64,000 bases of DNA from an uncultured Gammaproteobacteria bacterium (GCA_964612215.1 CAZTEW010000001.1:12432-76431), one strand, 5' to 3'. Counted from the stretch's first letter, positions 28,047 through 50,373 are shown. Made by a program: numbers and translations. Notes: generated by a model from the letters alone, not told the origin.

Positions 28047-28277
28047 GCGCGGCGCGGCGATTGGCTTTTTTCAATTGATTTCTTAAAGAAAGCAAGATAA
28101 GCCAAAAGAGCCACAATCATCGTTAAAGCGAAAGCAATAATAACCCTAGTATTAAGATCCCAAACATTAATCATTTATCTTTAAATTTTTCCTTAATCTA
28201 AAAGCAATCACTAAACAAAGGCTACCAAAGAGCACATCCATTGTCAAGAAACTTACCGTGATAAAATTAGTCAAGAA

Positions 28278-29276
28278 ATGAGAATTTTGGGCATTGAGAC
28301 GAGTTGTGATGAGACGGCGGCGGCCGTGGTTGAAAACGGGACAAAAGTGCTATCCAGCGTGGTTGCTTCTTCAGTGGCTTTACACCAAAAAACCGGCGGC
28401 ATTATTCCGGAAACCGCGGCTCGGGAGCAGGTTAAATATATTATTCCGGTTATAGAGGAGAGTTTAAAAGTATCAAGGTGTAAAAGTTTAAAAGAGATTG
28501 ATGCCGTGGCAGTGACCGTCGGGCCGGGTTTGATCGGTAGTCTTTTGGTCGGCGTGGAAACCGCTCGCGCCCTGGCCTATGTTTGGCAAAAACCAATTGT
28601 AGCGATTAATCATCTTCAGGCGCATCTCTACGCGAACTTTCTTAATTCAAAATTCAATCCGCCAGCTGGCGGACAAAATTCTGAATTATTCCCGGCGATT
28701 GGCTTGGTGGTGAGCGGCGGGCATACGGACTTGGTCCTGATGAAAGATCACGGGAAAATAAAATGGCTGGGCGGCACCCGTGATGATGCCGCCGGTGAGT
28801 GTTTTGATAAATGCAGTCGCTTGCTTGGTCTTAGCTATCCTGGTGGACCAGCGATCGAGGCGATCGCCTCTAAATTAAAAATTAAAAATGAAAAATTAAA
28901 AATTCTATTGCCGCGGCCAATGATGAATCAAAAGAATTATGACTTTTCTTTTGCCGGCTTAAAGACGGCTGTTTTTCATCAGGTGAGCAAGTTTACTGCG
29001 GAGCAATTAGCCAATGAGATTCAAGAGGCGATTGTGGAAGTGTTAGTGACGAAAACGATTAGGGCGGCTAAAGAATATCACACCAGGTCAATTTTACTTG
29101 GCGGCGGCGTGGCCGCGAATTCTTTGCTTCGCCAAAAGTTCAAAGTTCTACCGCCAAAAAATCTTTGTTCTGATAATGGTGCGGTGATTGCCGCCAGCGC
29201 TTTTTTTAATTACCGGCCAGTTAGTTGGCGGAAGATTAAAGCCAACCCTTCTCTTGGGATCGATGAAATTGTATAA
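28278..29276 (+). CDS. tsaD: tRNA N6-adenosine threonylcarbamoyltransferase TsaD
   Basis: MRILGIETSCDETAAAVVENG.., HLQAHLYAN, GGVAANSLLR are Kae1/TsaD signatures. Confidence 0.9.
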   Translation: MRILGIETSCDETAAAVVENGTKVLSSVVASSVALHQKTGGIIPETAAREQVKYIIPVIEESLKVSRCKSLKEIDAVAVTVGPGLIGSLLVGVETARALAYVWQKPIVAINHLQAHLYANFLNSKFNPPAGGQNSELFPAIGLVVSGGHTDLVLMKDHGKIKWLGGTRDDAAGECFDKCSRLLGLSYPGGPAIEAIASKLKIKNEKLKILLPRPMMNQKNYDFSFAGLKTAVFHQVSKFTAEQLANEIQEAIVEVLVTKTIRAAKEYHTRSILLGGGVAANSLLRQKFKVLPPKNLCSDNGAVIAASAFFNYRPVSWRKIKANPSLGIDEIV

Positions 29277-29283
29277 TATCTTC

Positions 29284-31341
29284 ATGGATAAAGCTTATCA
29301 GCCCCGGGAATATGAGGCTAAGATTTATCAATTTTGGGAGAAAAAAGGGTTTTTTAAGGCGACTCTTCAGACTGATAAAAAGCCGTTTGTGATTACTTTG
29401 CCGCCGCCAAACGTCACCGGCGGCCTGCATGCGGGCCACGCCATGTATGTTGTCGAAGACGTTCTTGCCCGCTACCATCGGATGAAAGCTGAGCCGACCC
29501 TTTTTTTACCCGGGTTTGATCATGCTTCCATCGCGGTTGAGTATTTAGTCAAAAAACAATTGGCTAAAGAAGGAAAAAGCAGGGAAGAGATCGGCCGGGA
29601 GGAGTTCCTGAAAAAGGCGGAAAAATTTGCTGAAGATTCTAAAAAATATATCCGCGGGCAGTTAAAAAAACTCGGCTTTTCTCTGGACTGGAGCCGGGAG
29701 GCTTACACCATGGATGTTGTCCGTTCTCAGGCAGTCAAAGAAGCGTTTCACAGGCTTCATCAAAAAAAGCTGATTTATCAAGGAGAGCGGATGATCCATT
29801 GGTGCGTTAAATGTCAAACGACTCTTTCTGATTTAGAAGTTGATTACCAAGAGCGAAAAGACCCGCTTTACTATTTAAAATATGGTCCTTTTATTTTGGC
29901 GACGACCAGGCCGGAAACCAAGTTTGGCGATACGGCGGTGGCAGTTAACCCGAAAGACAAGCGATATCAGTCCTGGGTCGGCAAAAAATTTATTTACCAG
30001 TCTTTAATCGGGTCGAGACAGATGAAAGTGATTGCTGATGAAGCGGTTGATCCGGAGTTCGGCACTGGGGTAGTGAAAGTCACACCGGCCCACGATTTTA
30101 ATGATTTTGAAATCAGCCAGCGACATCATTTAGATGTTCTAGCGGTAATTGACTGCCGCGGCAGGCTTAATCAAAACACAGGTCGGTTTAGCGGCTTAAC
30201 TATTCAACAGGCGCGGGAAAAAGTCGTAGCTGAACTGAAAAAGAAAGGCGATTTAATTAAAATTGACGAAAATTATCTGCATCGGGTGGGTACTTGTTAT
30301 CGCTGCGGCGCCGTGGTGGAGCCAATGATTTCCAAGCAATGGTTTGTCAAGATGAAACCTTTAGCTGCCAAAGCCATAGAAGCCGTGAAAACCGGTCGAA
30401 TCACCATCATTCCCCAGCGGTTTGAAAAGATTTATTTTCACTGGTTGGAAAATATTCAGGATTGGTGTATTTCCCGTCAGCTTTGGTGGGGTCATAAAAT
30501 TCCCTTGGCAGGCGAAGATGACGTTCTTGATACCTGGTTTTCCTCCAGCCTTTGGCCGATTTCTGTTTTCGGCTGGCCAGAAAAAACTAAAGATCTGCAA
30601 TTTTTTTACCCGACAACAGTCAGGGAAACTGGCTATGATATTTTATTTTTCTGGGTAGCCAGGGAAATTATGATGTGTTTGGCGATGACCGCTGAAATTC
30701 CTTTCAAAACTGTTTATTTTCACGGTTTGGTTCGGGATGAACAGGGCAGAAAATTCAGCAAGACCGCCGGGATTGGTTTTGATCCGGTTGAGATGATGGA
30801 GAAATACGGCGCTGATGCTTTACGCTTTGCTTTAGTCATTGGTAACGCGCCGGCTAGAGACCTGAAAATCCAGGAAAATAAGGTTAAAGCTTATCGTAAT
30901 TTCAGCAACAAGGTTTGGAATGCGGCGCGATTCATCACGATGAACCGCGAGGTCAAAACTCAATCCGCCAGCTGGCGGACAAAACTCAAAACTACAACTC
31001 AAAAGTTAAAGCTGGAAGATAAACAGATGATTAAAGAAATTAATCAACTAATCGTTTCAGCGACGAAACACTTAGATGAATTTCGTTTTGATTTAGCGGC
31101 AGAAGAAATTTATCAATGTTTTTGGCACCGGTTTTGCGATCATTATCTGGAAACAACCAAGTCGCGTCAAAAGGAGGCGGCGGCTCAGTGGACACTCCAG
31201 GTTTCTTTAAGAACTTTCTTAAAATTACTGCACCCTTTCATGCCTTTTATCACGGAAACAATTTGGCAGAAATTAAAAACCAAAAACGATCCAGATTTGA
31301 TAGTCGCACCATGGCCAGGAAAAATAAAAATCAGCCAGTAA
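29284..31341 (+). CDS. valS: Valine--tRNA ligase (short, CPR-type)
   Basis: MDKAYQPREYEAKIYQFWEKKGFFKA aligns with ValRS N-termini. HIGH motif GGLHAGHA. KMSKS-like KFSKT. Start set at ATG 29284, not the track 29188, which overlaps tsaD. Confidence 0.88.
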   Translation: MDKAYQPREYEAKIYQFWEKKGFFKATLQTDKKPFVITLPPPNVTGGLHAGHAMYVVEDVLARYHRMKAEPTLFLPGFDHASIAVEYLVKKQLAKEGKSREEIGREEFLKKAEKFAEDSKKYIRGQLKKLGFSLDWSREAYTMDVVRSQAVKEAFHRLHQKKLIYQGERMIHWCVKCQTTLSDLEVDYQERKDPLYYLKYGPFILATTRPETKFGDTAVAVNPKDKRYQSWVGKKFIYQSLIGSRQMKVIADEAVDPEFGTGVVKVTPAHDFNDFEISQRHHLDVLAVIDCRGRLNQNTGRFSGLTIQQAREKVVAELKKKGDLIKIDENYLHRVGTCYRCGAVVEPMISKQWFVKMKPLAAKAIEAVKTGRITIIPQRFEKIYFHWLENIQDWCISRQLWWGHKIPLAGEDDVLDTWFSSSLWPISVFGWPEKTKDLQFFYPTTVRETGYDILFFWVAREIMMCLAMTAEIPFKTVYFHGLVRDEQGRKFSKTAGIGFDPVEMMEKYGADALRFALVIGNAPARDLKIQENKVKAYRNFSNKVWNAARFITMNREVKTQSASWRTKLKTTTQKLKLEDKQMIKEINQLIVSATKHLDEFRFDLAAEEIYQCFWHRFCDHYLETTKSRQKEAAAQWTLQVSLRTFLKLLHPFMPFITETIWQKLKTKNDPDLIVAPWPGKIKISQ

Positions 31342-31646
31342 AGGAACTTCTGCTGCCGCTATTCTTGGTGCTGCTTTTGCTTTCAGTCTTTTGGCCGAAA
31401 AGAAATATTATCAGCGAGTGGCAGAGAAAAGAAGCCATCGAAGCCGAAATTAATTTTTGGGAAAAGACCGCTGAGCAATATCCAGGCGATGGCGATGCTT
31501 TTCTCAGACTAGCGGTTCTTCATTGGCAGGTACATCAACAGGCTACCGCCGCTGATTATTTAGAAAAAGCCCGCTACTTGAACCCGAATTCAGAGAAGAT
31601 TAAGGAAGTAGAAGGTCTGATTGCTGATCAGCTCGAGGCTCAATGA
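31311..31646 (+). CDS. Small membrane-anchored protein with TPR-like C-terminus (hypothetical)
   Basis: 112 aa from ATG 31311 (MARKNKNQPVKELLLPLFLVLLLLSVFW..). Overlaps the valS 3' end in another frame. The longer track ORF from 31116 is rejected. Confidence 0.3.
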   Translation: MARKNKNQPVKELLLPLFLVLLLLSVFWPKRNIISEWQRKEAIEAEINFWEKTAEQYPGDGDAFLRLAVLHWQVHQQATAADYLEKARYLNPNSEKIKEVEGLIADQLEAQ

Positions 31647-32091
31647 TTAATTTTCTCTCCCGGCCTTGACCTTCAGAACGGGTGGTAACGCCGGGATGAT
31701 CGGCCAAAACTAGATGGATGACTCTTCTTTCGGCGGCATTCAGGGCCGGTATCGTAACTGGCTTTTGAGAAAACTTAACTCTTTGGGCGGCGGCTAAAGC
31801 CATGGTTTTCAGCTGTTCTTCACGTTTCTCTTGCCAGCCGGCAATATCGACGAGTAAGCGCTGCCAAACACCGGATTTCTTATAGACGATCAGATTAAGC
31901 ATCAGTTGAAAGGCATAAAGATTTTCGCCATGAAAACCAATTAAGACCCCAGAGTCCTGAGTTTCAATTGAGAGTTTAAGCTGACCATCGCTAATTTTTT
32001 CCAGGCTGATTGCCGGCGCTTCAATTTTCAGAAGCTGCAGCAGCTCCTGAGCAGTTTGTTGAGTAATGGTTTCTAGGTTTGCTTCGACCAT
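31600..32091 (-). CDS. khpB: RNA-binding protein KhpB/Jag (KH + R3H domains)
   Basis: 163 aa. R3H-like ERRVIHLVLADHPGVTTRSEG. Immediately downstream of yidC, the conserved yidC-jag synteny. Confidence 0.7.
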   Translation of the reverse strand: MVEANLETITQQTAQELLQLLKIEAPAISLEKISDGQLKLSIETQDSGVLIGFHGENLYAFQLMLNLIVYKKSGVWQRLLVDIAGWQEKREEQLKTMALAAAQRVKFSQKPVTIPALNAAERRVIHLVLADHPGVTTRSEGQGRERKLIIEPRADQQSDLLLP

Positions 32092-32768
32092 TGGGAAAAG
32101 AACTGTTGCTGAATAATGGAAAAAAGAGTCGTGGCTACCCAGTAAAGAGCCAAACCAGAGGGCAGCTTAACAGAGATTAAAATTGTCATTAAAGGCATCA
32201 TCAGGTTCATTTGTTTCTGCATGGCCGTCGCCATATCTTCTTTCTTGGCTGATTTTTTCTTAATTTGAGGCGGTGATGGCAGTGGCATGATTTTCACGAG
32301 AAAAAACTGAGAGAGACCGGCGAAAACAGGCAAGACATAATAAGGGTCTGGCTGGGCTAAGTTTAACCAAAGAAATTCCATGTTGACCTGAGTGTTGTCG
32401 ATCATCCCAGTTTGGATAAAGTTGGCAAAGACCCGGTAAAGAGCAATCAGAACCGCGAACTGCAGCAGAAAAGGGAGACAGCCAGCCGCCGGATTAAGGT
32501 TATACTGGCGGTAAAGTTTAAGTTGTTCTTGTTGAAGCCTCCTTTTGTCTTGATATTTTTCCTTGAGTTTTTCTAATTCCGGCTGCAAATCCTTGAGACG
32601 TTGACTGGAGCGGAGAGTGGGTAAAATTAAAGGGATTAAAAGACTGCGAATCAGAATGGTGATGGTAATAATGGCCCAGCCGAAATTATTACCCAGGGCC
32701 TTATAGAAAAAGATCAGGCCTTGTAAGATGGGTTGATAGAATAGTGAATTCCAGAGGCTTGACATCAT
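32073..32768 (-). CDS. yidC: Membrane protein insertase YidC (short form)
   Basis: 231 aa. GWAIITITILIRSLLIPL..LQPELEKLKEKY..NPAAGCLPFLLQ. Confidence 0.8.
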   Translation of the reverse strand: MMSSLWNSLFYQPILQGLIFFYKALGNNFGWAIITITILIRSLLIPLILPTLRSSQRLKDLQPELEKLKEKYQDKRRLQQEQLKLYRQYNLNPAAGCLPFLLQFAVLIALYRVFANFIQTGMIDNTQVNMEFLWLNLAQPDPYYVLPVFAGLSQFFLVKIMPLPSPPQIKKKSAKKEDMATAMQKQMNLMMPLMTILISVKLPSGLALYWVATTLFSIIQQQFFSQWSKQT

Positions 32769-33502
32769 TTCTTTGCCGCCGCTTCTTTTTCTGCCGGAGA
32801 CGACTGTTTCCCTTTTTCTTCCTTTTTAGCTTCTTCGGCCTTTGGCTGGGCTTTCTTTTCCCCGGCGTCAGCAGCAACCCCTTCAGGTGCCGCCAGCGTC
32901 TCTTTGGCTTCCGGCTGAGGTTGAACTACGGCTTCTTCTTTTTCCGGAGGCGCAATTCTGGCAACAACCTCATTGGCAGCGGTGAGGATTTTTATTTTTC
33001 TTTGGTCAACATCAATGTCTTTGACCCGCACCATATCATCAACCTTTTCTAATTGATCAACGTTAACGATGATTTTCTCTGGCAGGTCAGCAGGTAGGGC
33101 TTCAACCTCAAGGTTATCAAGAATAGTCATCAGAATACCCACGCCGCTTTTTTCGGCCGGCGCTTCGCCAACAAGTTCGACTGGCACTTCAACCGTGGTT
33201 TTTTCCGTCAGACTAATCTGGCGGAAATCAGCATGAAGCGGCAAATCAGTGACCGGGTCGAGCTGAACATTGTGGATCAAGCCGGGACGGGTTTTACTTT
33301 CACCGCTAACTTTTATCTCGACCACGCCGGTTTCGCCTACTTCTTGGTAGACAGCCTTGAAGGCTTTTAAATCAACCTGAACCGCAGTTGATTTTATTTT
33401 TTTACCGTAAATATTAGCCGGGAGAATATTCTCAGCGCGGAGTTTTTTGACCTGCTTGCCTTGAACTTTTCTTTTTTGAACTTCAAGTTGCGGTTTTTTC
33501 AT
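32765..33502 (-). CDS. rplY: 50S ribosomal protein bL25 (Ctc form) with K/A/E-rich C-terminal tail
   Basis: MKKPQLEVQKRKVQGKQVKKLRAENILPANIYGKK.. is canonical L25. Confidence 0.8.
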   Translation of the reverse strand: MKKPQLEVQKRKVQGKQVKKLRAENILPANIYGKKIKSTAVQVDLKAFKAVYQEVGETGVVEIKVSGESKTRPGLIHNVQLDPVTDLPLHADFRQISLTEKTTVEVPVELVGEAPAEKSGVGILMTILDNLEVEALPADLPEKIIVNVDQLEKVDDMVRVKDIDVDQRKIKILTAANEVVARIAPPEKEEAVVQPQPEAKETLAAPEGVAADAGEKKAQPKAEEAKKEEKGKQSSPAEKEAAAKK

Positions 33503-35262
33503 CGACTTAAATTAACTGAAAATAAGCGGTCTTTCAGTAAGTCTGTATTATATAAGATTGACTGGGGTCCGGTCAAGGCTTGGGGAGAAATTTGGCTTGC
33601 CTGGTAAGTTTTCGGGTAGCGAATCAGAACCACGAGCGGGTCTTGAGAAACCCCGGGCTGTTTTTGGAATAAAAGAGAATAACTGAGACTGCTAGCGGCA
33701 GTAAAAGGCAGTTGATAATTGATTTTTACTTTTCTTTTTTCAGCTGGCGGGACTTCAACCAGAAAACCAAAAACTTTTTTTTCTGACTCCTGAAGGTGAT
33801 CGACTTTTTCCAGGTCCAAAACTTGATCGTCAATGAAAACGCTGAGTAGCTGGCTTTGAAGAGGCGTATAAACTCGCAGATAATTTTTATAAGTCCCGCC
33901 GGGCCAGGTTTGCGTCGGACTGTCATTCTGATAATCAATGGTCAGGGTTTCCTCAATGGTTTCTTTAATTTCAACTTGATGAGTGAAGCTTCTTTGTAAA
34001 AAAAAGTTAGTTTTGTTAACACCGAAATTACTTTCTACCACCATTAAGTAGTCTTCCAGGCAAGATTCCCCAAGCGGTCGATTAATTGACACACAGTGAT
34101 GATTGGCCAGCAGTCGGCCGTCCCAGCCGTAATCACTGATGATACTCATGACTTTCTGGTCGTTAAGTTGAATCAGAATTTGTTTTTCTTCCAGACCGGA
34201 GAGAAGCGGCGCGGCCAGTTTTAAGAAATTATCTCCATTTTTGATTTTCTCAAAAAGCTGACGGGTGAGGCTGCTGAGAAAGTCTTTTTTCTGGGTTGAA
34301 CCCGGAAAAAAACCAACTTCGCTGTGATATTCAGCCCGTTCAAAAAGATTGTGAGCGCTGATCGCTTCCTGATAATCCGGCAATTCAACCGAACCAATGG
34401 CCTGGAGGATTTTTTCAATCACTAAAAGATTAACCGCAATAACGCCGTCGACAGACTGACCAGTTTCTTTTTGCAAGAACCAGGCTGCTTTTTCAGCGGT
34501 GCGGGGAAAGTCAGGATCAAAATTGCTGTCGCGCAAATACCAGCCAGCTTCGCCGAGGTATTTTTTAATCGCTGCTGGCGGTTCAACATGGCCGCGAAGC
34601 TGGCCATCAGCTTCGTAAACATCTTGAACCTGAAAATCCAGCAGCTGGCCGTTTTGAAAAGTAGCTAAAGCAAAGGAGCCGATGAAGCCGCCAGTGGGCC
34701 TCAGTTCCATGTTGTTTTGGAGAAGGAAAAGATAGGTTTTGCGGCTGGTCGCCGCGAAAATTTCCGGCGTAACCGAGAGCAGTTTTTTACCGATTTCAAT
34801 TTTTTGCCGCAGAGAGCCGGTATCAATGAGGGGCACTTTCTTTAGTTTTGCTTCCAGCAGAGAGAGCTCTTTCCAAGCCAGACCGAGATTGTCCTCGGCT
34901 TCTTGAGCATATTTAGTCAGGCTGCCTTGTTCCCGGCCAAAAATTAAATAATCGACTCTGGTAAGGCTGGCGCCGGTTCTGGCCAAATAAAAGGCAGTTT
35001 GAGAAAGAGATTCGCCGACTTCAACCCAGTCTTGAACTTGAAAGGCTTTGCCCAAAAAGGGAAAAAGAGCTAAGGTTTTCTTAGCTTCTTGGAAAGACAG
35101 AGTGGCTTCTTCGGCCAGGGCTTGGCTGCGGCTAAAATCAGCCGCTAAAAGAGCTGTTTGGGTTTTCTCCAGGCCTTTCTTGCCCTGCCAAAGATAAAAA
35201 ATAAAGCTCAAGATCACCGCGAGAATCATCAGGAAAATCGAAAAAAAGAAAGCTTTTTTCAC
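33499..35262 (-). CDS. Large N-terminally anchored extracytoplasmic protein (DUF4012-like, common in CPR)
   Basis: 587 aa. One N-terminal TM. Family assignment from memory of DUF4012 architecture only. Confidence 0.4.
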   Translation of the reverse strand: MKKAFFFSIFLMILAVILSFIFYLWQGKKGLEKTQTALLAADFSRSQALAEEATLSFQEAKKTLALFPFLGKAFQVQDWVEVGESLSQTAFYLARTGASLTRVDYLIFGREQGSLTKYAQEAEDNLGLAWKELSLLEAKLKKVPLIDTGSLRQKIEIGKKLLSVTPEIFAATSRKTYLFLLQNNMELRPTGGFIGSFALATFQNGQLLDFQVQDVYEADGQLRGHVEPPAAIKKYLGEAGWYLRDSNFDPDFPRTAEKAAWFLQKETGQSVDGVIAVNLLVIEKILQAIGSVELPDYQEAISAHNLFERAEYHSEVGFFPGSTQKKDFLSSLTRQLFEKIKNGDNFLKLAAPLLSGLEEKQILIQLNDQKVMSIISDYGWDGRLLANHHCVSINRPLGESCLEDYLMVVESNFGVNKTNFFLQRSFTHQVEIKETIEETLTIDYQNDSPTQTWPGGTYKNYLRVYTPLQSQLLSVFIDDQVLDLEKVDHLQESEKKVFGFLVEVPPAEKRKVKINYQLPFTAASSLSYSLLFQKQPGVSQDPLVVLIRYPKTYQASQISPQALTGPQSILYNTDLLKDRLFSVNLSR

Positions 35263-35729
35263 GACTGAACCAAGGCTTTTTTCACTAAAGCATCCGCTTC
35301 TTGATTTTTTTCCCGAGGAATGTATTGGTAACGAAAACAGCCGCCAGCTTCTTGTTCTAATTGCCTGATTTTAATAGCTAAATTTCGCAGCTGGTAGTTT
35401 TTAATCTTAAAAACGCCGTTTAATTGATTAACCACCAGTTTTGAGTCGAGGTAAAATTTAATTTTTGCCACTCGCCACTTGCCACTAGCTACGAGCCAGT
35501 TTAAAGCTTCAATAACCGCGGTGTACTCGGCTACATTATTAGTAGCATAGCCAATAGGTCTGCCAAATTTATGAATTGTTTTTTCCTCATAAATTTTTAC
35601 ATTTCGCAGAAATCCCGCCTTGCGGGCTTTTTCATTTTTAATTTTTAACTTTACTATCACGCCGATAGCGGCTGGCCCGGGATTGTTGCTGGCGCCGCCG
35701 TCAGTGAAAATGGTTAAAAGATTTCTCAT
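35259..35729 (-). CDS. rnhA: Ribonuclease HI
   Basis: IFTDGGASNNPGPAAIGV.., NNVAEYTAVIEAL, DSKLVVNQ, REKNQEADALV are RNase H catalytic motifs. Carries an in-frame insertion, listed in the next entry. Confidence 0.85.
   Translation of the reverse strand: MRNLLTIFTDGGASNNPGPAAIGVIVKLKIKNEKARKAGFLRNVKIYEEKTIHKFGRPIGYATNNVAEYTAVIEALNWLVASGKWRVAKIKFYLDSKLVVNQLNGVFKIKNYQLRNLAIKIRQLEQEAGGCFRYQYIPREKNQEADALVKKALVQS
35591..35649. mobile_element. Palindromic hairpin element copy 1, in-frame within rnhA
   Basis: aatttttACATTTCGCAGAAAT-CCCGCCTTGCGGG-ctttttcatttttaatttttaac. The core cccgc-ctt-gcggg is a perfect stem-loop. Encodes the extra loop KLKIKNEKARKAGFLRNVKI. Confidence 0.6.
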
Positions 35730-36265
35730 TTTCTTATTTTATCACGATAAAAATCAGGATTGAGAAAAGGAGCCAGGCTGAAAATCACCGCGGTTTCGAA
35801 AACTAGCCTTCGGGTGATAAGGTGAGCAGTTAAAATCCCAGCCGCCCCTTCTCGCCTCCGGGTATCTTTCTGGCCAATGAATTCATCCATAACCAAGCCG
35901 AGTTCTTGGCCTTGCTTGATGCCGTTGATCACTGCCGCCGGCAGTAAAAGCCGGCCGCTGGAGCCGATGCCGATCCGGCCAGACTGATTAACCGCTGCTG
36001 CCCAGCCAGAAACAAACATTTGGCCGGCGACCTGAGTAACACAGCCTTCCAGGCCAAAAGCCAAATCAGCCTGAGTGATGATCAAAGCCTTTCTGGCTCG
36101 ATTTTTAGCGCCCCGAATTGCTTCTTCATCTGATAACGGTTGGGGTCTGATTCCAGAACTGACTGCCATGTTTATCACCTTGACCTGGGGCCAGAGGCGG
36201 CGCACCACTCTTTTCACAGCGCTAACCTTAACCGGATTGTCCGACCCGACCGCGATCTGCTTCAT
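35726..36265 (-). CDS. Non-canonical purine NTP phosphatase (YjjX/inosine-xanthosine triphosphatase family)
   Basis: MKQIAVGSDNPVKVSAVKRV.. aligns with the YjjX N-terminus. Track ORF trimmed to this Met. Confidence 0.65.
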   Translation of the reverse strand: MKQIAVGSDNPVKVSAVKRVVRRLWPQVKVINMAVSSGIRPQPLSDEEAIRGAKNRARKALIITQADLAFGLEGCVTQVAGQMFVSGWAAAVNQSGRIGIGSSGRLLLPAAVINGIKQGQELGLVMDEFIGQKDTRRREGAAGILTAHLITRRLVFETAVIFSLAPFLNPDFYRDKIRK

Positions 36266-36282
36266 GCTAAGATAATAAATTA

Positions 36283-37092
36283 ATGGCTGATCTTCGTCAA
36301 TCAATCCAATACGGCCGCTATCTTCAAGTTCTTGGTTGGCAAGCGATTAAAATTGATCACTGTCAAGTTTTTATCAAAAAAATTCCTTTACTGCCTTTTT
36401 CGATTATCAAAATTCAGCGACCAGAATTGCCGCTGCCGTTAGCAAAAATTGACAGACTGGCTAAAAAACGTCGCGTTTTTCTAATTAAACTAGAACCATT
36501 GACTATTCGCCATCACCTTTTTGCCAGATTCGGCTACCGCCGCGACTCTTGGCCACTGTTGCCAACCAAGACAGTCCAGATTGATTTAACCAAGAGCGAA
36601 AAGCAGTTATGGCAGGCAATTAATAAAAAGACAAGAAATTGCATCAAAAAAGCCCAATTCAACAATTTAACAAGAGATTATTTCTATCAAAATTTTAAAA
36701 AATTCGGCAAAGGCGATGTTCCTCAGGAAAAAGCATTTCAGGCTTTAATGGCGGCTTTTGGTCAGAATGCCTGGCTGTTGACATTTCATCCGCCCGCCTC
36801 ATCGGCGGGCTTCGCCGGAGCCCTGATTTTAATTCACGACCAAACTGCCTATTATTACTATGCTTTTACTTCGCCGGCCGGTCGTCGGGTTTTCAGTCAA
36901 CACCTGTTGGTTTGGCTAGCAATCAGGCAAGCCAAAAAAGCCGGCTGCCGGATTTTTGATTTTGAAGGCATTGCTGACCGGCGCTATCGCTTTACCCGCC
37001 AATGGCAGGGTTTTTCCCATTTTAAAAAATCCTTCGGCGGTCAAGAAATCACCTATCCCGGTTCCTTCAGCCGCTGGCGCCTACCGATTTAA
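36283..37092 (+). CDS. FemAB-family peptidoglycan aminoacyltransferase-like protein
   Basis: 269 aa. C-terminal YYYAFTSPAGRR..HLLVWLAIRQAKKAGCRIFDFEGI resembles the Fem/lipid II aminoacyltransferase GNAT-fold C-domain. Confidence 0.5.
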   Translation: MADLRQSIQYGRYLQVLGWQAIKIDHCQVFIKKIPLLPFSIIKIQRPELPLPLAKIDRLAKKRRVFLIKLEPLTIRHHLFARFGYRRDSWPLLPTKTVQIDLTKSEKQLWQAINKKTRNCIKKAQFNNLTRDYFYQNFKKFGKGDVPQEKAFQALMAAFGQNAWLLTFHPPASSAGFAGALILIHDQTAYYYYAFTSPAGRRVFSQHLLVWLAIRQAKKAGCRIFDFEGIADRRYRFTRQWQGFSHFKKSFGGQEITYPGSFSRWRLPI

Positions 37093-37093
37093 C

Positions 37094-40090
37094 CTATTGC
37101 CAGGCGTCGCAGAGGAGTTGGTAGGGGCAGAAATCGCAGAGCTTGCTGGGTGTGGGCAAAAATTGACTTTTCTGAATTGCTTCAGCTTTTTGGATGATTT
37201 CTTTTTTGGCACTGGTCAGTTGGATTGCGGTTCGTTGCGTGGAAAGTTTTTGCACCGGCTCGAGGAAAATGAAACTGAGAATGATTTCTTCTGGTTTTTT
37301 GCCGTAAATGCCCGAATCAGTGGCCGCCAAGGCATAAATTGTCGCTTGTAAATCTTGGTCAACTTCTTTTTGGGTTTTCGCCTTGCCGGTTTTATAATCA
37401 ATGATTTCCATTTTGCCCGCCGACGAGGCGGAGTCAATCCGGTCGATTTTGCCTCTGATTTTCAGGCTGCGGCTCAGGGGGAAAGAAAAGCCCTGTTCTA
37501 AAGCCAGAGGTTTGATGCTGGAGTCATAAAGCTTTTTATAAAAATGGCGTAAAATAGTTTTGCCCCGCAGTAGCATTTTCTTTTCATGAGCTTTTGAAGA
37601 ATAGCCTAATGGCGACCAATTTTTTTCCAGAAGAGACAGGAGTTGCTGACCAGCAGGCTGTTTGAGCCGGTAAAAGTCTCTTAGGGTTTTATGAATCGTC
37701 TCGCCAAAACTAAGGCTGGCTGAGGCTGGTGTCGGTATTCGCAAAAGATATTGATATTTATACTGCAGAGGGCAAACAGCAAAGGTGTTAATTTGAGAAT
37801 AGGAAAGAGAGCTGATAGTGATTAGCGGTTCGCCAGCTGGTCCGCCTGCCAGGCGGGCAGGTCGGACTGACGGCGCTGGTTTAAAGTCAAGAAAAGAAAG
37901 CTGATCAGCCGGTTGCTTGGCTTGACGGCCAGGCATTTCTCCTAAAGTTTCAGAGACAAACGGTGAGATTTTTTTCTTCTGCTTAGCCTCAGCGTAATAA
38001 TCGGCCGCGGTTAAAAAAAGCCGGTCTTGAGCCCGGGTCAGCCCGACATAAAACAGCCGGCGTTCTTCTTGCTGGTGATAATCGCCCTGAGGCAAAAACT
38101 CCTTGATGATTGCTTCTGGCAAGGGGATTTGTTCCGGACGCTGGGTAGTGGGGAAGCGCTGATTAACGAGATTGACTAAGAAAACGACTGGAAACTCCAA
38201 ACCCTTAGCTGAGTGGATGGTGAGGAGATTGACCGCGTCGGTTTCGCTCCAATCGACATCAGCCGCCAAAGGCGATTCACCCAGGTTGATTTTCATCTTC
38301 AACCAGTCGACGACCGGAAAAACAGAAGCGTCTTCATGGTTGCTTTCATAAGTTCTCAGCTGGTCAAAAAATTTGGCTGTGTTCAGCGCTTGACGCTCAG
38401 CCAGGGCCGTCTGGTAGCTGGTAATCGCTTTCAGCAAACCGGTTTCTTCGAGGAAGTAATAAAGAATTTGACCGCTGCTTTTCTTGGGGATTAATTTTAA
38501 ATGCCGGTGAATCATTTTAATGATTTTGCTGATTTTCTGTTGGGAGTCGAGGCTGATTCTGGGTCGGGGCCGCTGGCTTTCTTCTTGACTGACTTCTTCA
38601 CAGCCTGTAAATAAAGACAGCTGATGTTTGCGGCTGAAACTGCGGATGGCCGCTAAATCCCGGGCCGAAACCTGGAAAATATCCATGGTTAAAACTCTGA
38701 AGAAAGCGACATCATCTTCAAAATCATCAAGAACTTGAAGATAAGCGATGAGATTCTTGATTTCTGGCTGGCGCAAAAGCCGGCCCGGGCCTAAAAATTG
38801 AGAGGGAATGTCATGACGAGTTAAGGCCTGGCTAAAAGGATGAGCATGGTTATTGGCCCGGACGAGAATCGCAAAATCCGACCAACGATAATTTTTACAT
38901 TTCGCAGAAATCCCGCCTTGCGGGCTTTTTAATTTTAAATTTTTAATTTTCTTTGCCACTGCTTCTGCTTCGTTTTCGACTCGATCAAGATGGAGAAATT
39001 CAATTTTTTCGCCTTTGATTTTCCGAACAGGCATGAGTCGTTTGTTGATTTTCTCCTGAATCTCGAGCCGGTCAGGATTGTTATGTTGGATAAGTTGATA
39101 AGCGGCGTCAAGAATCGTTTTCGTCGAGCGGTAATTGCGGATCAGAGAAACGACTTTTGCTTTGGGAAAGCGTTTTCTGAACTGAAGAACATTGGCAATG
39201 GCCGCGCCGCGCCATTTGTAGATCGCCTGGTCATCGTCACACGCAACGGTAATATTGGCCCGCCGATGAGGCGGGCGGGCGAGAAGAATCGCCAGTTCGT
39301 TTTGGCTGATGTTGGTATCCTGAAATTCGTCCACCAGCAGGTATCTAAAGCGCTGCTGATATTCTCTCAGAATATATTTTCTCTTTCGGAAAAGCTGGAG
39401 GGTATTGCTGATTAGGTCACTGAAATCCATTCGACTCTCTTTGATTTTCAGCTCTTGGTATTTTTTGAAAGCCCGAGCCAGCTCAAGATATTTTCTAACT
39501 TCAGTTTTATCAATTTTGATTTTTGATTTGTCATTTTGACTTTTGACTTGCCCGCCTTGCGGGATTTCTGCGAAATGTGACTTTTGAGTTTGAGCCCAAT
39601 GAAAATATTCATTGGGCGATATATCTTCGTCACGCAAGCGATTAAAATGCTGGAGCAAACCGCCGAGGAATTTAGTCGGGTTGCCTTGGGGTCGGAAATA
39701 ATTGAGCGGCAAGTCAAAAAGATGGTTTTTCAAGAACAGCAAAGATTCAGCTTCAGTCATCAGGACGAAGCCTGGGTCTAGGCCGACATTCACCGCTTCA
39801 TCGCGCAAAACCCGGTCGCAAAAAGAATGAAAAGTCGCAATCCACATTTGGGTGTAGCCGTAAGGCATGGCCTGGTCAACCCTTTCTTCCATTTCCTGAG
39901 CGGCTTTCTCGGTGAAAGTTAGGGCCAGGATTTCTGCCGGCTTGGCAAGACCCTGATTGATCAACCACCTGATTCGTTCAGTGATGACGGTAGTTTTGCC
40001 AGTGCCAGCGCCGGCAATAATCAACAAAGGACCTTGTTTGTGTTCGACCGCTCTTTTCTGTTCTGGATTAAGAACTTTTCTGTCCGTCAC
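37094..40090 (-). CDS. UvrD/PcrA-family helicase fused to C-terminal PD-(D/E)xK nuclease with 4-Cys cluster (AddA/AddB/Cas4-like)
   Basis: 998 aa. Walker A IIAGAGTGKTTV. UvrD motifs. C-terminus CPLQYKYQY..CDFCPYQLLCDAWQ. Carries two in-frame palindromic element insertions. Confidence 0.8.
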   Translation of the reverse strand: MTDRKVLNPEQKRAVEHKQGPLLIIAGAGTGKTTVITERIRWLINQGLAKPAEILALTFTEKAAQEMEERVDQAMPYGYTQMWIATFHSFCDRVLRDEAVNVGLDPGFVLMTEAESLLFLKNHLFDLPLNYFRPQGNPTKFLGGLLQHFNRLRDEDISPNEYFHWAQTQKSHFAEIPQGGQVKSQNDKSKIKIDKTEVRKYLELARAFKKYQELKIKESRMDFSDLISNTLQLFRKRKYILREYQQRFRYLLVDEFQDTNISQNELAILLARPPHRRANITVACDDDQAIYKWRGAAIANVLQFRKRFPKAKVVSLIRNYRSTKTILDAAYQLIQHNNPDRLEIQEKINKRLMPVRKIKGEKIEFLHLDRVENEAEAVAKKIKNLKLKSPQGGISAKCKNYRWSDFAILVRANNHAHPFSQALTRHDIPSQFLGPGRLLRQPEIKNLIAYLQVLDDFEDDVAFFRVLTMDIFQVSARDLAAIRSFSRKHQLSLFTGCEEVSQEESQRPRPRISLDSQQKISKIIKMIHRHLKLIPKKSSGQILYYFLEETGLLKAITSYQTALAERQALNTAKFFDQLRTYESNHEDASVFPVVDWLKMKINLGESPLAADVDWSETDAVNLLTIHSAKGLEFPVVFLVNLVNQRFPTTQRPEQIPLPEAIIKEFLPQGDYHQQEERRLFYVGLTRAQDRLFLTAADYYAEAKQKKKISPFVSETLGEMPGRQAKQPADQLSFLDFKPAPSVRPARLAGGPAGEPLITISSLSYSQINTFAVCPLQYKYQYLLRIPTPASASLSFGETIHKTLRDFYRLKQPAGQQLLSLLEKNWSPLGYSSKAHEKKMLLRGKTILRHFYKKLYDSSIKPLALEQGFSFPLSRSLKIRGKIDRIDSASSAGKMEIIDYKTGKAKTQKEVDQDLQATIYALAATDSGIYGKKPEEIILSFIFLEPVQKLSTQRTAIQLTSAKKEIIQKAEAIQKSQFLPTPSKLCDFCPYQLLCDAWQ
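38890..38950. mobile_element. Palindromic hairpin element copy 2, in-frame within helicase gene
   Basis: aatttttACATTTCGCAGAAAT-CCCGCCTTGCGGG-ctttttaattttaaatttttaatttt. Identical 36-nt core to copy 1. Encodes KKIKNLKLKSPQGGISAKCKN. Confidence 0.6.
39511..39590. mobile_element. Palindromic hairpin element copy 3 (opposite-arm variant), in-frame within helicase gene
   Basis: ttttgatttttgatttgtcattttgacttttgacttg-CCCGCCTTGCGGG-ATTTCTGCGAAATGtgacttttgag. The right arm is the reverse complement of the left arm of copies 1 and 2. Flanked by direct repeat tgacttttga. Encodes EIPQGGQVKSQNDKSKIKID. Confidence 0.55.
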
Positions 40091-41116
40091 CTATAAGCCT
40101 GCTTTTAGCTGTTTGTTTTCTCGGATGGACTCGGAAAGAGCTTGAGTCGAGGAGAGTTTTTGGCCGAGCAAAGAAAAGCTTTGGAGAACATGGGCAAATT
40201 GATTATAAGCATTATTAAGGTGTTTGCCTAAAACCTGAAGAACGCTGTCAGTTTTCTGATAGTCTTTTTGAATCGCTCTCAGCAGGCGAAAGACTTGACG
40301 CGATCGGGCTTCAATTTTTTGGCCCTCAAAAGAAAGCAGAACGGTTTGCAGGTGGACATAAAGAGTGTTAGGTGAAACTGGATAAACCCGCTGCTGGCGA
40401 GCATATTCAAGAAGAGAAGCATTGTTAGCCACTTCGTAAAAGACTGTCTCTGAAGGCAAATACATGAAAGCAAAGTCTAACGTTCCTTCCTCAGGCAAAA
40501 TATATTTTTTGGCGATGTCCTGGATATGTTTTTTAATGTTCTGACTGAAGGTTTTTTTGGCGGCCTGGCGGTCGGCCTTAGTTTGGCTGGTGATCATCCG
40601 CCGAAAGTTTTCCATGGGAAACTTGGAGTCAATCGGCAGGATGCCGGCTGAAGTTTTAATGGCGGCATCAACTTTTTCGCCGGACTTAAAGGAGTGCTGG
40701 AAAAAAAAGCTGCCCTTGGGAAAAGCTTCGGCAATTAAGTCTTTGAGAACCTGTTCGCCAATATTGCCCCGTAGCTTTGGTGATTGGAGGAAAACCTGAA
40801 GTTCGCGCATGCTACTGCCTAGCTCTGACATTTTCCCTACTTCCTTAGAGACTTGACCAATAAAGCGCGCGGCATTATCCAGTCTTTCATTGATGGTTTT
40901 GGTAGTTGTTTGCAGAGTGTCAGAGATATTTTTCGATTGGTCCTGAAGGCCTTTTTGCACGCCGGCAGTGCCTTTTTGAAAAATCTCCATTGCCTTGAGA
41001 AAGTTTTCATCCGGTTTAAGAGATTTGGTCAATTGCTGGAGGCGGCGGTTAATTAACCAGAAAAGCACCGCCAAAGCGGCAATGATCAGAGCGCTAATCA
41101 GATAGACTTCCTGGTT
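40091..41116 (-). CDS. rmuC: DNA recombination protein RmuC
   Basis: N-terminal TM, coiled coil, RmuC core RGNIGEQVLKDLIAEAFP..ILPIDSKFPMENF. Start moved to MNQEVYLISALII (41116). The Lys-rich 80-aa track extension is rejected. Confidence 0.65.
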   Translation of the reverse strand, partial: NQEVYLISALIIAALAVLFWLINRRLQQLTKSLKPDENFLKAMEIFQKGTAGVQKGLQDQSKNISDTLQTTTKTINERLDNAARFIGQVSKEVGKMSELGSSMRELQVFLQSPKLRGNIGEQVLKDLIAEAFPKGSFFFQHSFKSGEKVDAAIKTSAGILPIDSKFPMENFRRMITSQTKADRQAAKKTFSQNIKKHIQDIAKKYILPEEGTLDFAFMYLPSETVFYEVANNASLLEYARQQRVYPVSPNTLYVHLQTVLLSFEGQKIEARSRQVFRLLRAIQKDYQKTDSVLQVLGKHLNNAYNQFAHVLQSFSLLGQKLSSTQALSESIRENKQLKAGL

Positions 41117-41894: not shown

Positions 41895-43331
41895 ATGGCC
41901 AAGAAATTTTACATTACGACCGCTATTCCTTACGTCAATGCCTCACCCCATTTAGGTCATGCCTTGGAATTTGTTCAGGTCGATGCTGCTGCCAGGTATC
42001 ATCGCTTAGTCGGGGAGGTCTTTTTTGCTACCGGCTCTGATGAGAATGCCTTGAAAAATGTTCAAGCAGCCCAGAAAAGGAACATGACCACTCAACAGTT
42101 GTGCGACCAGGTGACTCAAGAATTTAAGAAGTTTGCCAGACGGCTTAACATTCAATATGATGTCTGGCGCCGAGGGTCTGATAAAAAAAGACATTGGCCA
42201 GGGGTGCATCGACTTTGGCAGCTTTGTCAAAAATCCGGCGATATCTATAAGAAAAGTTACCAGGGGCTTTATTGTGTCGGTTGTGAAGCTTTTTTGACTC
42301 CTAAAGACCTACAGAATGGTCAATGCCCGTACCACTTAAAGAAGCCAGAATTGATTGAAGAAATAAATTATTTCTTTCGCCTGTCCAAATACGAAGACAA
42401 GATAAAACATTTAATCGAGTCGAACGAACTGAAAGTTTTTCCTAAAAAAAGAAAAAATGAAATTTTAGCTTTCATTAATCAGGGGTTGAAAGATTTTAGC
42501 GTTTCTAGGTCAACTCAAAGAACGCATGGTTGGGGCATCCCTGTTCCTGGTGATGATTCCCAAATGATTTATGTTTGGTATGACGCCTTAACTATTTATA
42601 TGACGGCGGTGGGTTGGGGTTATGACCAAAAGCGCTGGAAGGGGTTCTGGCCAGCCGACCTTCATGTTATCGGCAAGGATATCGTCCGTTTTCATGCCGT
42701 TTATTGGCCGGCAATGCTTTTAAGCGCCGGGCTAGCTTTACCCAAAGCAATTTTAGTGCACGGTTTCATCACCTCCGGCGGCCAAAAAATGGCCAAGAGT
42801 TTAGGTAATGTTGTTGATCCTCAGGAAATTGCCAAAAAATACGGCGCTGATGCCCTGAGATATTATCTTTTAAAAGAAATTCCTACTCAAGATGACGGTG
42901 ATTTCACTGTTAAGCATTTTGAGGAAATTTATAATGCTGATCTGGCTAATGGGCTAGGGAATTTAGTGCAGCGGGTGGCAAAGCTAGCCGAAGATTATAA
43001 AATTTATAACAATTATAAACTTTATAAAAACTATAAAATTTATAATAAATTTTTTAGTGAATATCGCTTTAACGACTGTTTGGTTTGGTTGTGGGAAAAA
43101 ATTGCCAGTGTCGATAAATACCTTGATCAAACTCAGCCGTGGAATAAGAAAGGGAAAGAACGAGTCAAGATATTAGTGAAACCAGTGAAGGAGATTCGCG
43201 AGATTGCTTTTCTTTTACAGCCATTTTTGCCGGAAACAGCCGTGGCCATTGAGAAAATATTCAGCGCCGATAAAATAAAAGCACCGGGAAAACCACTTTT
43301 TCCGCGCCTGCCGGTCGGCAGGCAGGGGTGA
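41895..43331 (+). CDS. metG: Methionine--tRNA ligase
   Basis: 478 aa. HIGH-type PYVNASPHLGHALE. KMSKS as KMAKSLGN. Confidence 0.9.
   Translation: MAKKFYITTAIPYVNASPHLGHALEFVQVDAAARYHRLVGEVFFATGSDENALKNVQAAQKRNMTTQQLCDQVTQEFKKFARRLNIQYDVWRRGSDKKRHWPGVHRLWQLCQKSGDIYKKSYQGLYCVGCEAFLTPKDLQNGQCPYHLKKPELIEEINYFFRLSKYEDKIKHLIESNELKVFPKKRKNEILAFINQGLKDFSVSRSTQRTHGWGIPVPGDDSQMIYVWYDALTIYMTAVGWGYDQKRWKGFWPADLHVIGKDIVRFHAVYWPAMLLSAGLALPKAILVHGFITSGGQKMAKSLGNVVDPQEIAKKYGADALRYYLLKEIPTQDDGDFTVKHFEEIYNADLANGLGNLVQRVAKLAEDYKIYNNYKLYKNYKIYNKFFSEYRFNDCLVWLWEKIASVDKYLDQTQPWNKKGKERVKILVKPVKEIREIAFLLQPFLPETAVAIEKIFSADKIKAPGKPLFPRLPVGRQG
42993..43048. repeat. 9-nt tandem repeat (tataaaNNt x about 6) encoding YKIYNNYKLYKNYKIYNK inside metG
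   Basis: Direct read: gattataaaatttataacaattataaactttataaaaactataaaatttataataaa. Confidence 0.7.
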
Positions 43332-49802: not shown

Positions 49803-49873
49803 GACCGCGTACCCAAGAGGTTAGGGAGTTGTCTGCAAAACAACTAACGCCGGTTCGAATCCGGCCGCGGTCT
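49803..49873 (+). tRNA. tRNA-Cys (GCA)
   Basis: Hand-folded. Acceptor GACCGCG/CGCGGTC. Anticodon stem gttgt/acaac with loop ctGCAaa. T-arm gccgg-ttcgaat-ccggc. Discriminator T. CCA not encoded. Confidence 0.8.
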
Positions 49874-49893
49874 CAAAGAAACAAGAGTTAAGG

Positions 49894-50345: not shown

Positions 50346-50373
50346 TAACTTAATTTAAACATAAAGACTGTTG

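Follow-up and report, generated by a model that had tools for sequence, protein, structure and literature searches.

This report concerns a 64,000-nt stretch of DNA (GCA_964612215.1, CAZTEW010000001.1:12432-76431), here called the window, and, more precisely, a set of very short hairpin-forming sequences that lie inside its protein genes. The sequence carries the name of an uncultured Gammaproteobacteria bacterium; its host genome is treated throughout as belonging to the Patescibacteria, i.e., the candidate phyla radiation (CPR), and the window is the part of that genome that is visible. At the centre of the analysis are two genes, rnhA, which encodes RNase HI, and a gene for a helicase fused to a nuclease domain. 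The original prediction held that a palindromic motif is inserted in frame three times within 4 kb, once in rnhA and twice in the helicase-nuclease gene, in the manner of the Rickettsia palindromic elements (RPEs). The observation is confirmed, with three cores found where 0.00 are expected, and its interpretation is partly supported. These three copies make up family A, while further hairpins of the window are grouped in families B and C; all of them are listed in Table 1 together with their host genes.

Table 1. Host genes, hairpin modules, and heptamer tracts of the window (TRF, Tandem Repeats Finder; aaRS, aminoacyl-tRNA synthetase; ORF, open reading frame)
Feature	Coordinates	Strand	Remarks
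RNase HI gene (rnhA), 156 aa	35259..35729	-	Pfam RVT_3/RNase_H; insert at residues 27-46, tip of the beta2-beta3 hairpin
UvrD/PcrA-type helicase with C-terminal PD-(D/E)XK nuclease, 998 aa	37094..40090	-	Contains family-A copies 2 and 3, plus three more GC hairpins
Family-A core, copy 1, in rnhA	35599..35627	-	AT hairpin 35601-35613 and GC hairpin 35614-35626; GCCCGC-AAG-GCGGG-ATTTC-TGC-GAAAT-GT; peptide ARKAGFLRNV
61-nt block, copy 1	35592..35652	-	Core plus (AAAAATT)-type heptamer tract
Family-A core, copy 2, in helicase-nuclease	38897..38925	-	Peptide SPQGGISAKC; frame differs from copy 1
61-nt block, copy 2	38890..38950	-	Heptamer tract (TRF, period 7) at 38926-38950
Family-A core, copy 3, in helicase-nuclease	39550..39578	-	AT hairpin 5' of GC hairpin on the coding strand; peptide HFAEIPQGG
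Heptamer array (TCAAAAN)n adjoining copy 3	39513..39549	-	TRF
Family-C hairpin, in FemAB-like gene	36790..36810	+	CCGCCCGCC-TCATC-GGCGGGC; peptide HPPASSAG; missing from close relative L034
Family-C hairpin, in helicase	39258..39278	-	21/21 complementary to 36790-36810; other frame, ARPPHRRA
Family-C-like hairpin, in helicase	37417..37431	-	CCGCC-TCGTC-GGCGG; DSASSAGK; in L034 with one mismatch; missing in L029, L030, and L031
GC palindrome, in helicase	37829..37861	-	CCGCCTG-G-CAGGCGG; LAGGPAGE; +7 aa versus L030
Family-B module, in TsaD gene	28647..28688	+	16-nt palindrome TCCGCCAGCTGGCGGA between CAAAATT heptamers; peptide SKFNPPAGGQNSEL
Family-B module, in class-I aaRS-like ORF 29188-31341	30953..30994	+	Other frame, VKTQSASWRTKLKT; followed by a CAAAACT array
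Uninterrupted 33-nt heptamer unit, in TsaD gene	28872..28904	+	AAATTAAAAATTAAAAATGAAAAATTAAAAATT; KLKIKNEKLKI; the A/T-rich arm without a hairpin

Structure and reading frames of the family-A copies

The family-A core is 29 nt long and has the form ACATTTCGCAGAAAT-CCCGC-NNN-GCGGG-C. Its GC hairpin, CCCGCCTTGCGGG, occurs three times in the window (35614-35626, 38912-38924, and 39551-39563) against an expectation of 0.11, and the 29-nt core, ACATTTCGCAGAAATCCCGCNNNGCGGGC, with any bases accepted in the loop, gives exactly three matches when up to 3 mismatches are allowed, compared with 0.00 expected and zero in shuffled sequences. The remaining part, ATTTCGCAGAAAT, is found at 35601-35613 (+), 38899-38911 (+), and 39564-39576 (-), i.e., to the left of the GC hairpin in copies 1 and 2, and to its right, as the reverse complement, in copy 3. 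Since ATTTCGCAGAAAT is itself a 5-bp hairpin, ATTTC-GCA-GAAAT, its reverse complement differs from it in the loop only, and the core consists of two adjacent hairpins, one GC and one AT. Copy 3 equals the reverse complement of the core at 26 of the 29 positions, the three loop bases being the sole differences.

Followed along the coding strand, copies 1 and 2 have the order [A-rich tract]-GCCCGC-AAG-GCGGG-ATTTC-TGC-GAAAT-G-TAAAAATT, and copy 3 reads TCAAAAGTCA-C-ATTTC-GCA-GAAAT-CCCGC-AAG-GCGGGC-AAG-[TCAAAAG array]. The loop of the GC hairpin is AAG on this strand in all three copies, and for this reason copy 3 is not a plain inversion of the other two. The reverse-complemented flank of copy 3 had been noticed before and was taken as one arm of a long palindrome, of which each locus would have kept a single arm. 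The reversal is real, but the arm is itself a hairpin, and the long palindrome becomes unneeded: two small adjacent hairpins are enough, and they are separable, as seen in the related loci L029 and L030 discussed in the next section.

Copies 1 and 2 share, as had been described, a common core and an A/T-rich arm, which together form a block of 61 nt with 95% identity. This is the largest block common to any of the copies, and most of it is heptamer repeat, the core itself contributing two stems of 5 bp. The A/T-rich arms are 7-nt tandem repeats and stand beside all three copies (TRF, period 7, at 35628-35652, 38926-38950, and 39514-39546). The 10-bp direct repeat reported around copy 3, TGACTTTTGA, is indeed present at 39537-39546 and 39578-39587, bracketing the core, but it is simply made of units of the heptamer array. 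The same is true of the direct repeats of 8 and 10 bp at the family-B copies, and copies 1 and 2 have none. No inverted termini were found around the 61-nt block, whose flanks are direct 7-nt repeats. Folding of the RNA, which had been proposed as a check, and of the DNA yields just these small hairpins, with energies of -9 to -12.6 kcal/mol and z-scores of -0.6 to -2.3; a search with the Rfam covariance models gave no match at E<=1 on either strand of the region 27000-41000.

All three copies (3/3) lie in frame and free of stop codons inside minus-strand ORFs, and the Lys-rich peptides that they add are those noted earlier, KLKIKNEKARKAGFLRNVKI at residues 27-46 of RNase HI, and KIKNLKLKSPQGGISAKCKN and HFAEIPQGGQVKSQNDKSKIKIDKTEV at residues 381-400 and 172-198 of the helicase, respectively. 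The two-frame reading noted at the outset is also borne out, in that translation of the GC hairpin gives ARKAG in rnhA and PQGG in the helicase, within the core peptides ARKAGFLRNV for rnhA, PQGGISAKC for copy 2, and HFAEIPQGG for copy 3. Because it is read in different frames, the motif is a repeat at the level of DNA, with no conserved peptide.

The continuity of these ORFs, with proper protein on both sides of every copy, bears on the suspicion that low-complexity or palindromic sequence was misjoined during sequencing or assembly. The contig is metagenome-assembled, and palindromes and A/T repeats are error-prone, which would suit such an artefact. However, related modules occur, at the same or at other sites, in independent NCBI, ENA, JGI, and Logan assemblies, and we regard an artefact as highly improbable.

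Regarding the position of the inserts in the folded proteins, the AlphaFold2 model of RNase HI has a mean confidence score (pLDDT) of 93, and in it residues 27-46 prolong the beta2-beta3 hairpin at the protein surface, with a local pLDDT of 80-82. The idea that the inserts occupy surface loops therefore holds for RNase HI, while the model of the helicase is too poor (pLDDT 56) to extend it: both inserts fall in low-confidence linkers between helices, to which little weight is given. Both helicase sites are Lys-rich linkers of variable length in relatives. As a side observation, the helicase homologs P0007, P0037, P0054, P0063, and P0069 include some of ~1,320-1,345 aa that contain Hint/intein Pfam domains (PF01079 and PF14890), and the same helicase is therefore also an intein host in related lineages.

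Related modules, orthologous sites, and the 33-nt cassette

Alignment with homologs agrees with the proposal that the inserted peptides are lineage-specific. Among 22 RNase HI homologs, 14 have no extra residues at the insert site; P0128 and P0136 have KLKIKNEKLKI or KLKIKVEALKI there, and the interrupted form KLKIKNEK-ARKAGFLRNV-KI is found only in the window protein. At the DNA level, the rnhA gene of P0128 (locus L035) carries the uninterrupted 33-nt unit AAATTAAAAATTAAAAATGAAAAATTAAAAATT and no hairpins, and the window gene carries the same unit with the 28-nt segment GCCCGCAAGGCGGGATTTCTGCGAAATG replacing one T, and is thereby longer by a net 27 nt. In L034, the closest relative by synteny, whose flanking-gene proteins are 90-96% identical, the rnhA gene has neither the unit nor the hairpins. 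The A/T-rich arm, which had been counted as part of the element, is thus better described as a separate heptamer cassette, since it is hairpin-free in the window's own TsaD gene, in L035, and in at least 120 metagenome loci recovered by a pattern scan.

For the helicase, the closest homolog (P0002, locus L030, 76% identity) is shorter by 27 aa at copy 3 and by 9 aa, exactly 27 nt, at copy 2, and the hairpins of both copies are missing from it. At the copy-2 site, L029 has the AT hairpin alone, with a compensated stem (ATTCC-TTC-GGAAT versus ATTTC/GAAAT in the window). Filled and empty orthologous sites coexist among relatives of 62-96% protein identity. To place these differences among all others, ~17 orthologous genes of L030 and L034 were aligned to the window with a cut-off of at least 3 aa, which gave 11 indels. 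GC-hairpin modules make up six of the 11, comprising the three family-A copies, HPPASS, AGGPAGE, and one 33-nt hairpin in L030 itself; another indel is a tandem duplication of 14 nt. At the site of the window's palindrome at 37842, L034 has (CCAGCTA)x3, so that hairpins and heptamer arrays share hot spots.

Two further observations were made on these relatives. A class-I aaRS-like ORF of the window (41895-43331) has a 9/18-nt tandem repeat at 42991-43051 that encodes DYKIYNNYKLYKNYKIYNK, and at the corresponding place the L030 ortholog (5395-6843) has a 33-nt hairpin insert with an 11-bp stem, translated as WPNGLSRSGGI. In addition, the FemAB-like, NTPase, and rnhA genes (35259-37092) have 62-73% protein identity to L034, and the genes on both sides (DUF4012, L25, YidC, KhpB, and the helicase C-terminus) are 90-96% identical; this short block either was replaced by recombination or is evolving fast, and the hairpin modules cluster there.

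The other families have comparable properties. Family C, CCGCCCGCCTCATCGGCGGGC, is identical at 21 of 21 positions in the FemAB-like gene and in the helicase, where it is read in different frames, and a related third copy lies at 37417. At the site of the helicase copy, L030 has CCGCC-GAAAA-GGCGG versus CCCGCC-TCATC-GGCGGG in the window, with the same stem and a different loop and frame. Locus L208 has CCTGCC-TCGTC-GGCAGG, a double compensatory change relative to the CCCGCC/GGCGGG stem of family C. The modules also occur separately, namely the AT hairpin alone in L029 and a GC hairpin with another loop in L030. Family B consists of TCCGCCAGCTGGCGGA between CAAAAYT heptamers, with period-7 arrays (TRF) beside both window copies, and the palindrome is found with the same flanks in an ORF of L105 that by eye resembles a P-type ATPase, and in non-coding DNA of L141; the family was counted in three genes of two organisms. 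A separate observation concerns L072 (Ga0172379_10055000), a 3.4-kb contig that ends in perfect terminal inverted repeats of 123 nt (1-123 and 3312-3434), each centred on TCCGCCAGCTGGCGGA. Either the contig is a small element whose inverted ends are long, or its ends were produced by fold-back during assembly.

The compensatory changes, which preserve both stems in other species, raise the question of a selected nucleic-acid signal, e.g., a hairpin followed by a run of T that stops antisense transcription, or a structured site for a host factor. The antisense strand of copies 1 and 2 and of both family-B copies does fit the pattern of an intrinsic terminator, with a GC stem followed by CTTTTT or TGAGTTTT; moreover, the AAG loop is on the coding strand in 3/3 family-A copies, and the three family-C copies have one orientation relative to transcription. 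Such a signal is nevertheless improbable, as the stems have only 5-7 bp and fold weakly, no Rfam family covers them, the T-run is missing at copy 3, the same sites are free of the motifs in the closest relatives, and terminator-like structures in the region are only ~1.8 times as frequent as in shuffles.

A different form of selection, acting on the protein, is suggested by the substitutions between species: in three cross-species pairs of modules, 9/9 differences fall at third codon positions and are synonymous. In this explanation, Lys-rich peptides with a beta-hairpin-like pattern (LKIK-NE-KLKI, PASSAG, and GFLRNVK) would be selected, for example for contacts with nucleic acids or as flexible loops, and the likeness of the DNA would reflect descent and recombination. 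PASSAG or SASSAG is present in four proteins, many of the host proteins act on nucleic acids, and the heptamer unit is read as LKIKNEKLKI in 35/40 cases among the matches listed. On the other hand, the same DNA is translated in other frames within one genome (ARKAG/PQGG, PASSAG/RPPHRRA, and PPAGG/SASWR), and nucleotide identity in genes of ~60% protein identity is unexpected from selection on the peptide alone. The bias toward the LKIKNEKLKI frame follows from stop avoidance, because the 32-mer has a single stop-free sense frame. Taken together, these points make a protein module quite improbable as the source of the repeats.

The 32-mer just mentioned belongs to the 33-nt heptamer cassette, which was traced in metagenomes with the pattern AAATTAAAAATGAAAAA-N{1,31}-TAAAAATT and retrieved at no fewer than 120 loci, i.e., at least 120. 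Among the matches listed (121), the gap is of 1 nt in 74, and the full 32-mer is present in 40, of which 35 are in the stop-free sense frame and 32 lie inside ORFs of at least 100 aa. The form of the cassette can be summarised as (K/E)LKIKNEKLKI, and the contigs that bear it have GC contents from 0.30 to 0.59. Its hosts among the matches listed are, by Pfam, SecA, RpoB, TopA, ValRS, LepA, ProRS, TsaD (two copies), PriA, TrmD, and a DUF3987 protein, and, by eye, GyrA, a Mur ligase, RecR, RseP, MiaA, CobT, TrxB, and PBP2. Among the same matches, the 32-mer is preceded by any of A, G, and C, but in no case by T: the unit begins at a point where TAA would otherwise have occurred, and the next TAA is abolished by the G inside the unit. 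In non-coding DNA of giant viruses the repeat is pure (AAAAATT)n, and the position in question is T in 140 cases, A in three, C in one, and G in none. As an aside, long pure (AAAAATT)n microsatellites are common in the AT-rich contigs of giant-virus metagenome-assembled genomes (L037 and L164-L207), where 140 overlapping matches all lack the stop-avoiding G. The interrupted form of the cassette is not restricted to rnhA, as L052, in an ORF that by eye is UvrC-like, has another hairpin (PASSAG) nested at the identical point of the 33-nt unit.

Heptamer arrays in general are frequent in this material. In a tandem-repeat survey of 0.89 Mb, made of the window, its relatives, and the metagenome loci, and from which the arrays selected by the scan pattern had been removed, period 7 is the commonest period, with 81 arrays of 70 different units, followed by period 14 with 51; the median length over all period-7 arrays is 33 nt. 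Moreover, DUF1015 genes of Paludibacteraceae that are otherwise 97-100% identical in DNA differ in one loop, which holds alternative cassettes built on (AAAAATT), (AAAGGCR), or (AAAAGCR), and many further alleles. This loop, which follows DGHHRSAAA (L138, L162, and L163; P0244-P0363), is hypervariable among proteins of 85-100% identity, with more than 15 alternative cassettes, including the heptamer-derived LKIKNEKLKI, LKIQNSKLKI, LKAKGKKANG, and KQKATGNKNA, and the internally repeated KMSAAKLLNDKMSAAKPLN.

Proposed copying into heptamer tracts and the alternatives

We propose that the copies are very small hairpin-forming DNA modules, of ~16-33 nt, that have been copied into tandem heptanucleotide tracts, and give this reading a probability of about 0.55. 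The family-A module would be the 29-nt pair of a GC hairpin (CCCGC-AAG-GCGGG) and an AT hairpin (ATTTC-TGC-GAAAT), and the tracts that receive the modules would be located in parts of genes that code for loops. Only those copies would be retained whose added length is divisible by three, which contain no stop codon, and whose product is hydrophilic and rich in Lys; these would be translated as extensions of surface loops. Translation of the inserts is argued for by the fact that frame and stop avoidance are both respected. As for the copying step, it would most likely go from one heptamer tract to another by template switching or short-patch gene conversion; whatever their register, two tracts could provide 7-14 nt of microhomology, and the element itself would encode no enzyme. 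Such a route would explain why the copies cluster locally, why the direct repeats consist of array units, why the modules are separable, and why the loop is flipped.

The direct repeats could also be read in the classical way, as target-site duplications left by a non-autonomous transposon, similar to an RPE or to a miniature inverted-repeat transposable element (MITE), with a transposase supplied in trans; the heptamers would then be either the preferred target or footprints of duplication. The 10-bp repeat that brackets copy 3 is consistent with this, as are the locus-specific direct repeats around the family-B copies (CAAAATTC versus CAAAACTCAA), the reversed polarity of the AT hairpin in copy 3, the recurrence of the 16-nt palindrome TCCGCCAGCTGGCGGA and its flanks in a gene of another organism and in non-coding DNA, and the central place of the same palindrome in the 123-nt perfect terminal inverted repeats of L072. 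However, the core of 27-31 nt has no terminal inverted repeats and is far smaller than known MITEs and RPEs, the direct repeats are merely units of the surrounding tandem array, and copies 1 and 2 have no duplication at all. The distances from repeat to repeat are 26 and 41 nt, which are not multiples of three, and a single insertion with duplication would therefore break the frame. In addition, the syntenic neighbourhoods contain housekeeping genes only and no transposase-like Pfam match, the source genome being visible over 64 kb. We thus consider a transposon unlikely, and favour template switching or conversion between tracts because the modules are tiny, separable, and devoid of terminal inverted repeats, the loop is flipped, the flanking repeats consist of array units, and all three copies cluster within 4 kb.

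Some other candidates were discarded. The variable region of a diversity-generating retroelement would have a template/variable repeat pair and an adenine-specific pattern, neither of which is seen; mis-integrated CRISPR spacers are set aside by the identical sequence at many sites, and DNA uptake sequences by the lack of a single short motif at high density. A signal for ribosomal bypass or frameshifting does not agree with the respect for frame and stop avoidance. A generic screen for GC segments between A-rich tracts produced too much noise to be of use.

Several points weigh against the copying of modules into heptamer tracts. The template-switching step is pure inference on our part. The three known family-A copies all lie within 4 kb, with none in the remaining 60 kb of the window. 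A scan of 185,579 GTDB species representatives for the 18-mer ATTTCGCAGAAATCCCGC returned 28 single matches in unrelated and mostly GC-rich taxa, which we attribute to chance because none extends into the hairpin, and neither the family-A 20-mer nor the family-B 24-mer has a match in viral contigs. With three local copies and no element-like match in GTDB or viral DNA, family A can be no more than a candidate for genome-wide mobility, and no event of polymorphism within a population was caught for this family. The refuting condition set at the outset, a motif confined to these three places, may therefore apply. The fold energies and z-scores are modest. The substitutions, all of them synonymous, point to a constraint at the protein level on some of the inserted peptides, and, together with the terminator-like antisense modules, they complicate a purely selfish view of the elements. 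Finally, at 37417 and in the DUF1015 loop of Paludibacteraceae the cassette replaces local sequence and is no clean addition, which would fit recombination between alleles as well as insertion.

A broader proposal, which we put forward as tentative and rather doubtful, is that the hairpins and the 7-nt arrays are products of one unrecognised process, common to several phyla, that writes cassettes of ~33 nt into DNA coding for loops, each cassette being made of four or five heptamers and, in some cases, a nested mini-hairpin. Variation in protein length in Patescibacteria would stem mainly from this process, which would act in Bacteroidales as well and would need dedicated and so far unknown machinery. 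A polymerase or reverse transcriptase that repeats its template, or a nuclease specific for hairpins, could be a candidate for this role, rather than ordinary slippage.

Likeness to known elements and minor observations

Among known systems, the closest description appears to be that of the small dispersed repeats (SDRs) that sit in the heptamer arrays (STRRs) of Nostocaceae; by this comparison the present modules would resemble SDRs more than RPEs, and no link by descent is claimed. SDR elements are reportedly 21-27 nt long and embedded in tandem heptamer (STRR) arrays, and are said to occur mainly in intergenic DNA, introns, and RNA genes. The size is close to that of the modules, with a net insert of 27 nt and a core of 29 nt, and both sets have predicted hairpins with compensatory changes, here those of L029 and L208. 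Both are embedded in tandem heptamers, which here are the arrays found by TRF at the three family-A and the two family-B copies, and the nesting point of L052. A nested, modular arrangement, presence that varies between relatives, no coding capacity of their own, and an obscure mobilising mechanism are also common to the two. They differ in phylum, which here is Patescibacteria, with the heptamer cassette also in Bacteroidales, so that the two are likened by description and not by sequence, and in that all the copies here are in frame inside protein genes and presumably translated. The existence of the study that described SDRs (Elhai et al. 2008, Genome Res 18:1484) is documented by its citation in PMC3116915 and PMC5861425; according to the latter, SDR-like repeats were not found beyond Nostocaceae among HIP1-rich cyanobacteria, and P6b heptanucleotide repeats with non-repeat indels are reported for Nostoc (PMC3488679).

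The RPEs, to which the copies had been compared, are ~100-150 bp long, consist of one long palindrome, and form families with dozens of dispersed copies (Ogata et al. 2000, summarised in PMC10969869). The comparison holds for the in-frame location in unrelated housekeeping genes, the fold-compatible peptides, and the absence from orthologs, and fails for the length of 100-150 bp and the terminal inverted repeats, and, less clearly, for a consistent target-site duplication and many dispersed copies. The core here is 29 nt, i.e., ~3-5 times shorter, has two 5-bp stems, and is known from three local copies; its setting of 7-nt tandem repeats has no counterpart in RPEs.

GC-rich palindromes of ~30-50 nt also spread in A/T-rich mitochondrial DNA, coding sequence included, as the GC clusters of yeast and the byp inserts of Magnusiomyces; the ribosome skips the byp inserts, for which being in frame is no requirement. 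The modules share with them the short GC-rich palindromes in A/T-rich DNA, also inside coding sequence, and differ in that the mitochondrial sequences belong to organelle genomes, whereas here the frame and the avoidance of stops are respected. In Geobacter metallireducens, multicopy elements built from four or five heptanucleotides in tandem lie both inside genes and between them (PMC2700814), and their format is that of the 33-nt unit and of the remaining period-7 arrays described here. Their units, however, are GC-rich (GGACCGG) and have been interpreted as regulatory, with neither nested hairpins nor an in-frame analysis reported. Lastly, the repetitive extragenic palindromes (REPs) and REPINs associated with RAYT transposases are imperfect palindromes of 20-40 nt, highly repeated and non-coding (PMC3116915, PMC3733652). 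They are likewise short imperfect palindromes with no coding capacity, but REPs are extragenic, have a GTAG/CGTC head, form inverted pairs, and come with a RAYT gene, whereas all copies here lie inside genes, lack the GTAG head and the inverted pairing, and have no transposase-like Pfam match in the syntenic neighbourhoods. Searches of the literature on the peptide, on the DNA string, and on in-frame palindromes in CPR genomes found nothing, and we consider as new, with no literature found, the phylum, the strictly intragenic and in-frame setting, the contribution to protein indels, and the 33-nt cassette that crosses phyla.

If the proposal is true, the modules would be among the smallest known copy-and-paste DNA elements, acting inside essential genes of ultra-small CPR bacteria, and could be a main route by which proteins of reduced genomes gain or swap surface loops (6/11 indels). 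The comparison would link CPR genomes to the SDR/STRR arrays of Nostoc and to the four-heptamer elements of Geobacter, and suggests a general bacterial mechanism for heptanucleotide arrays of ~33 nt, for which the KLKIKNEKLKI cassette (SecA, RpoB, TopA, aaRSs, TsaD, and others) provides a concrete and searchable marker. Such inserts would also inflate apparent divergence and produce false 'signature indels', and can mislead phylogenies based on CPR alignments as well as structure prediction.

Other repeats of the window were recorded along the way. Two perfect heptamer arrays are in frame: (TTTTTAC)x5, 36 nt at 1746-1781, encodes FLLFTFYFLLFT in the ORF 1248-2774, which by eye is hydrophobic and likely a membrane protein, and (GCTGTTC)x4.4, 33 nt at 3903-3933, encodes RLFAVRCSLFA in the ORF 3735-4958. 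T-rich arrays seem to be acceptable in genes whose product is hydrophobic. At 28845-28871, immediately upstream of the heptamer unit in the TsaD gene, GCGATCGAGGCGATCGCC holds the octamer GCGATCGC, which is the cyanobacterial HIP1 motif, and the hairpin GAGGC-GATC-GCCTC; the octamer is probably there by coincidence. SDR5 is said to insert in HIP1.

The segment of ~0.5 kb at 49875-50460, right after a tRNA-Cys gene (49803-49874), has only broken minus-strand ORFs and by eye looks like a frameshifted gene for a four-helix-bundle protein ('23S rRNA IVS', intervening sequence). Tandem arrays with 8-nt units stand on either side of it, AAGAGTTT x5.2 at 49883-49923 and TTTAAAAG x4.6 at 50375-50411, and the segment may be a small decayed insertion beside the tRNA. 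Elsewhere in the window, a direct repeat of 300 nt is 100% identical in two places 2 kb apart (12205-12504 and 14219-14518), and identity is 74% in another pair (13276-13489 and 14687-14900); the pairs look like paralogous genes that were recently duplicated or converted.

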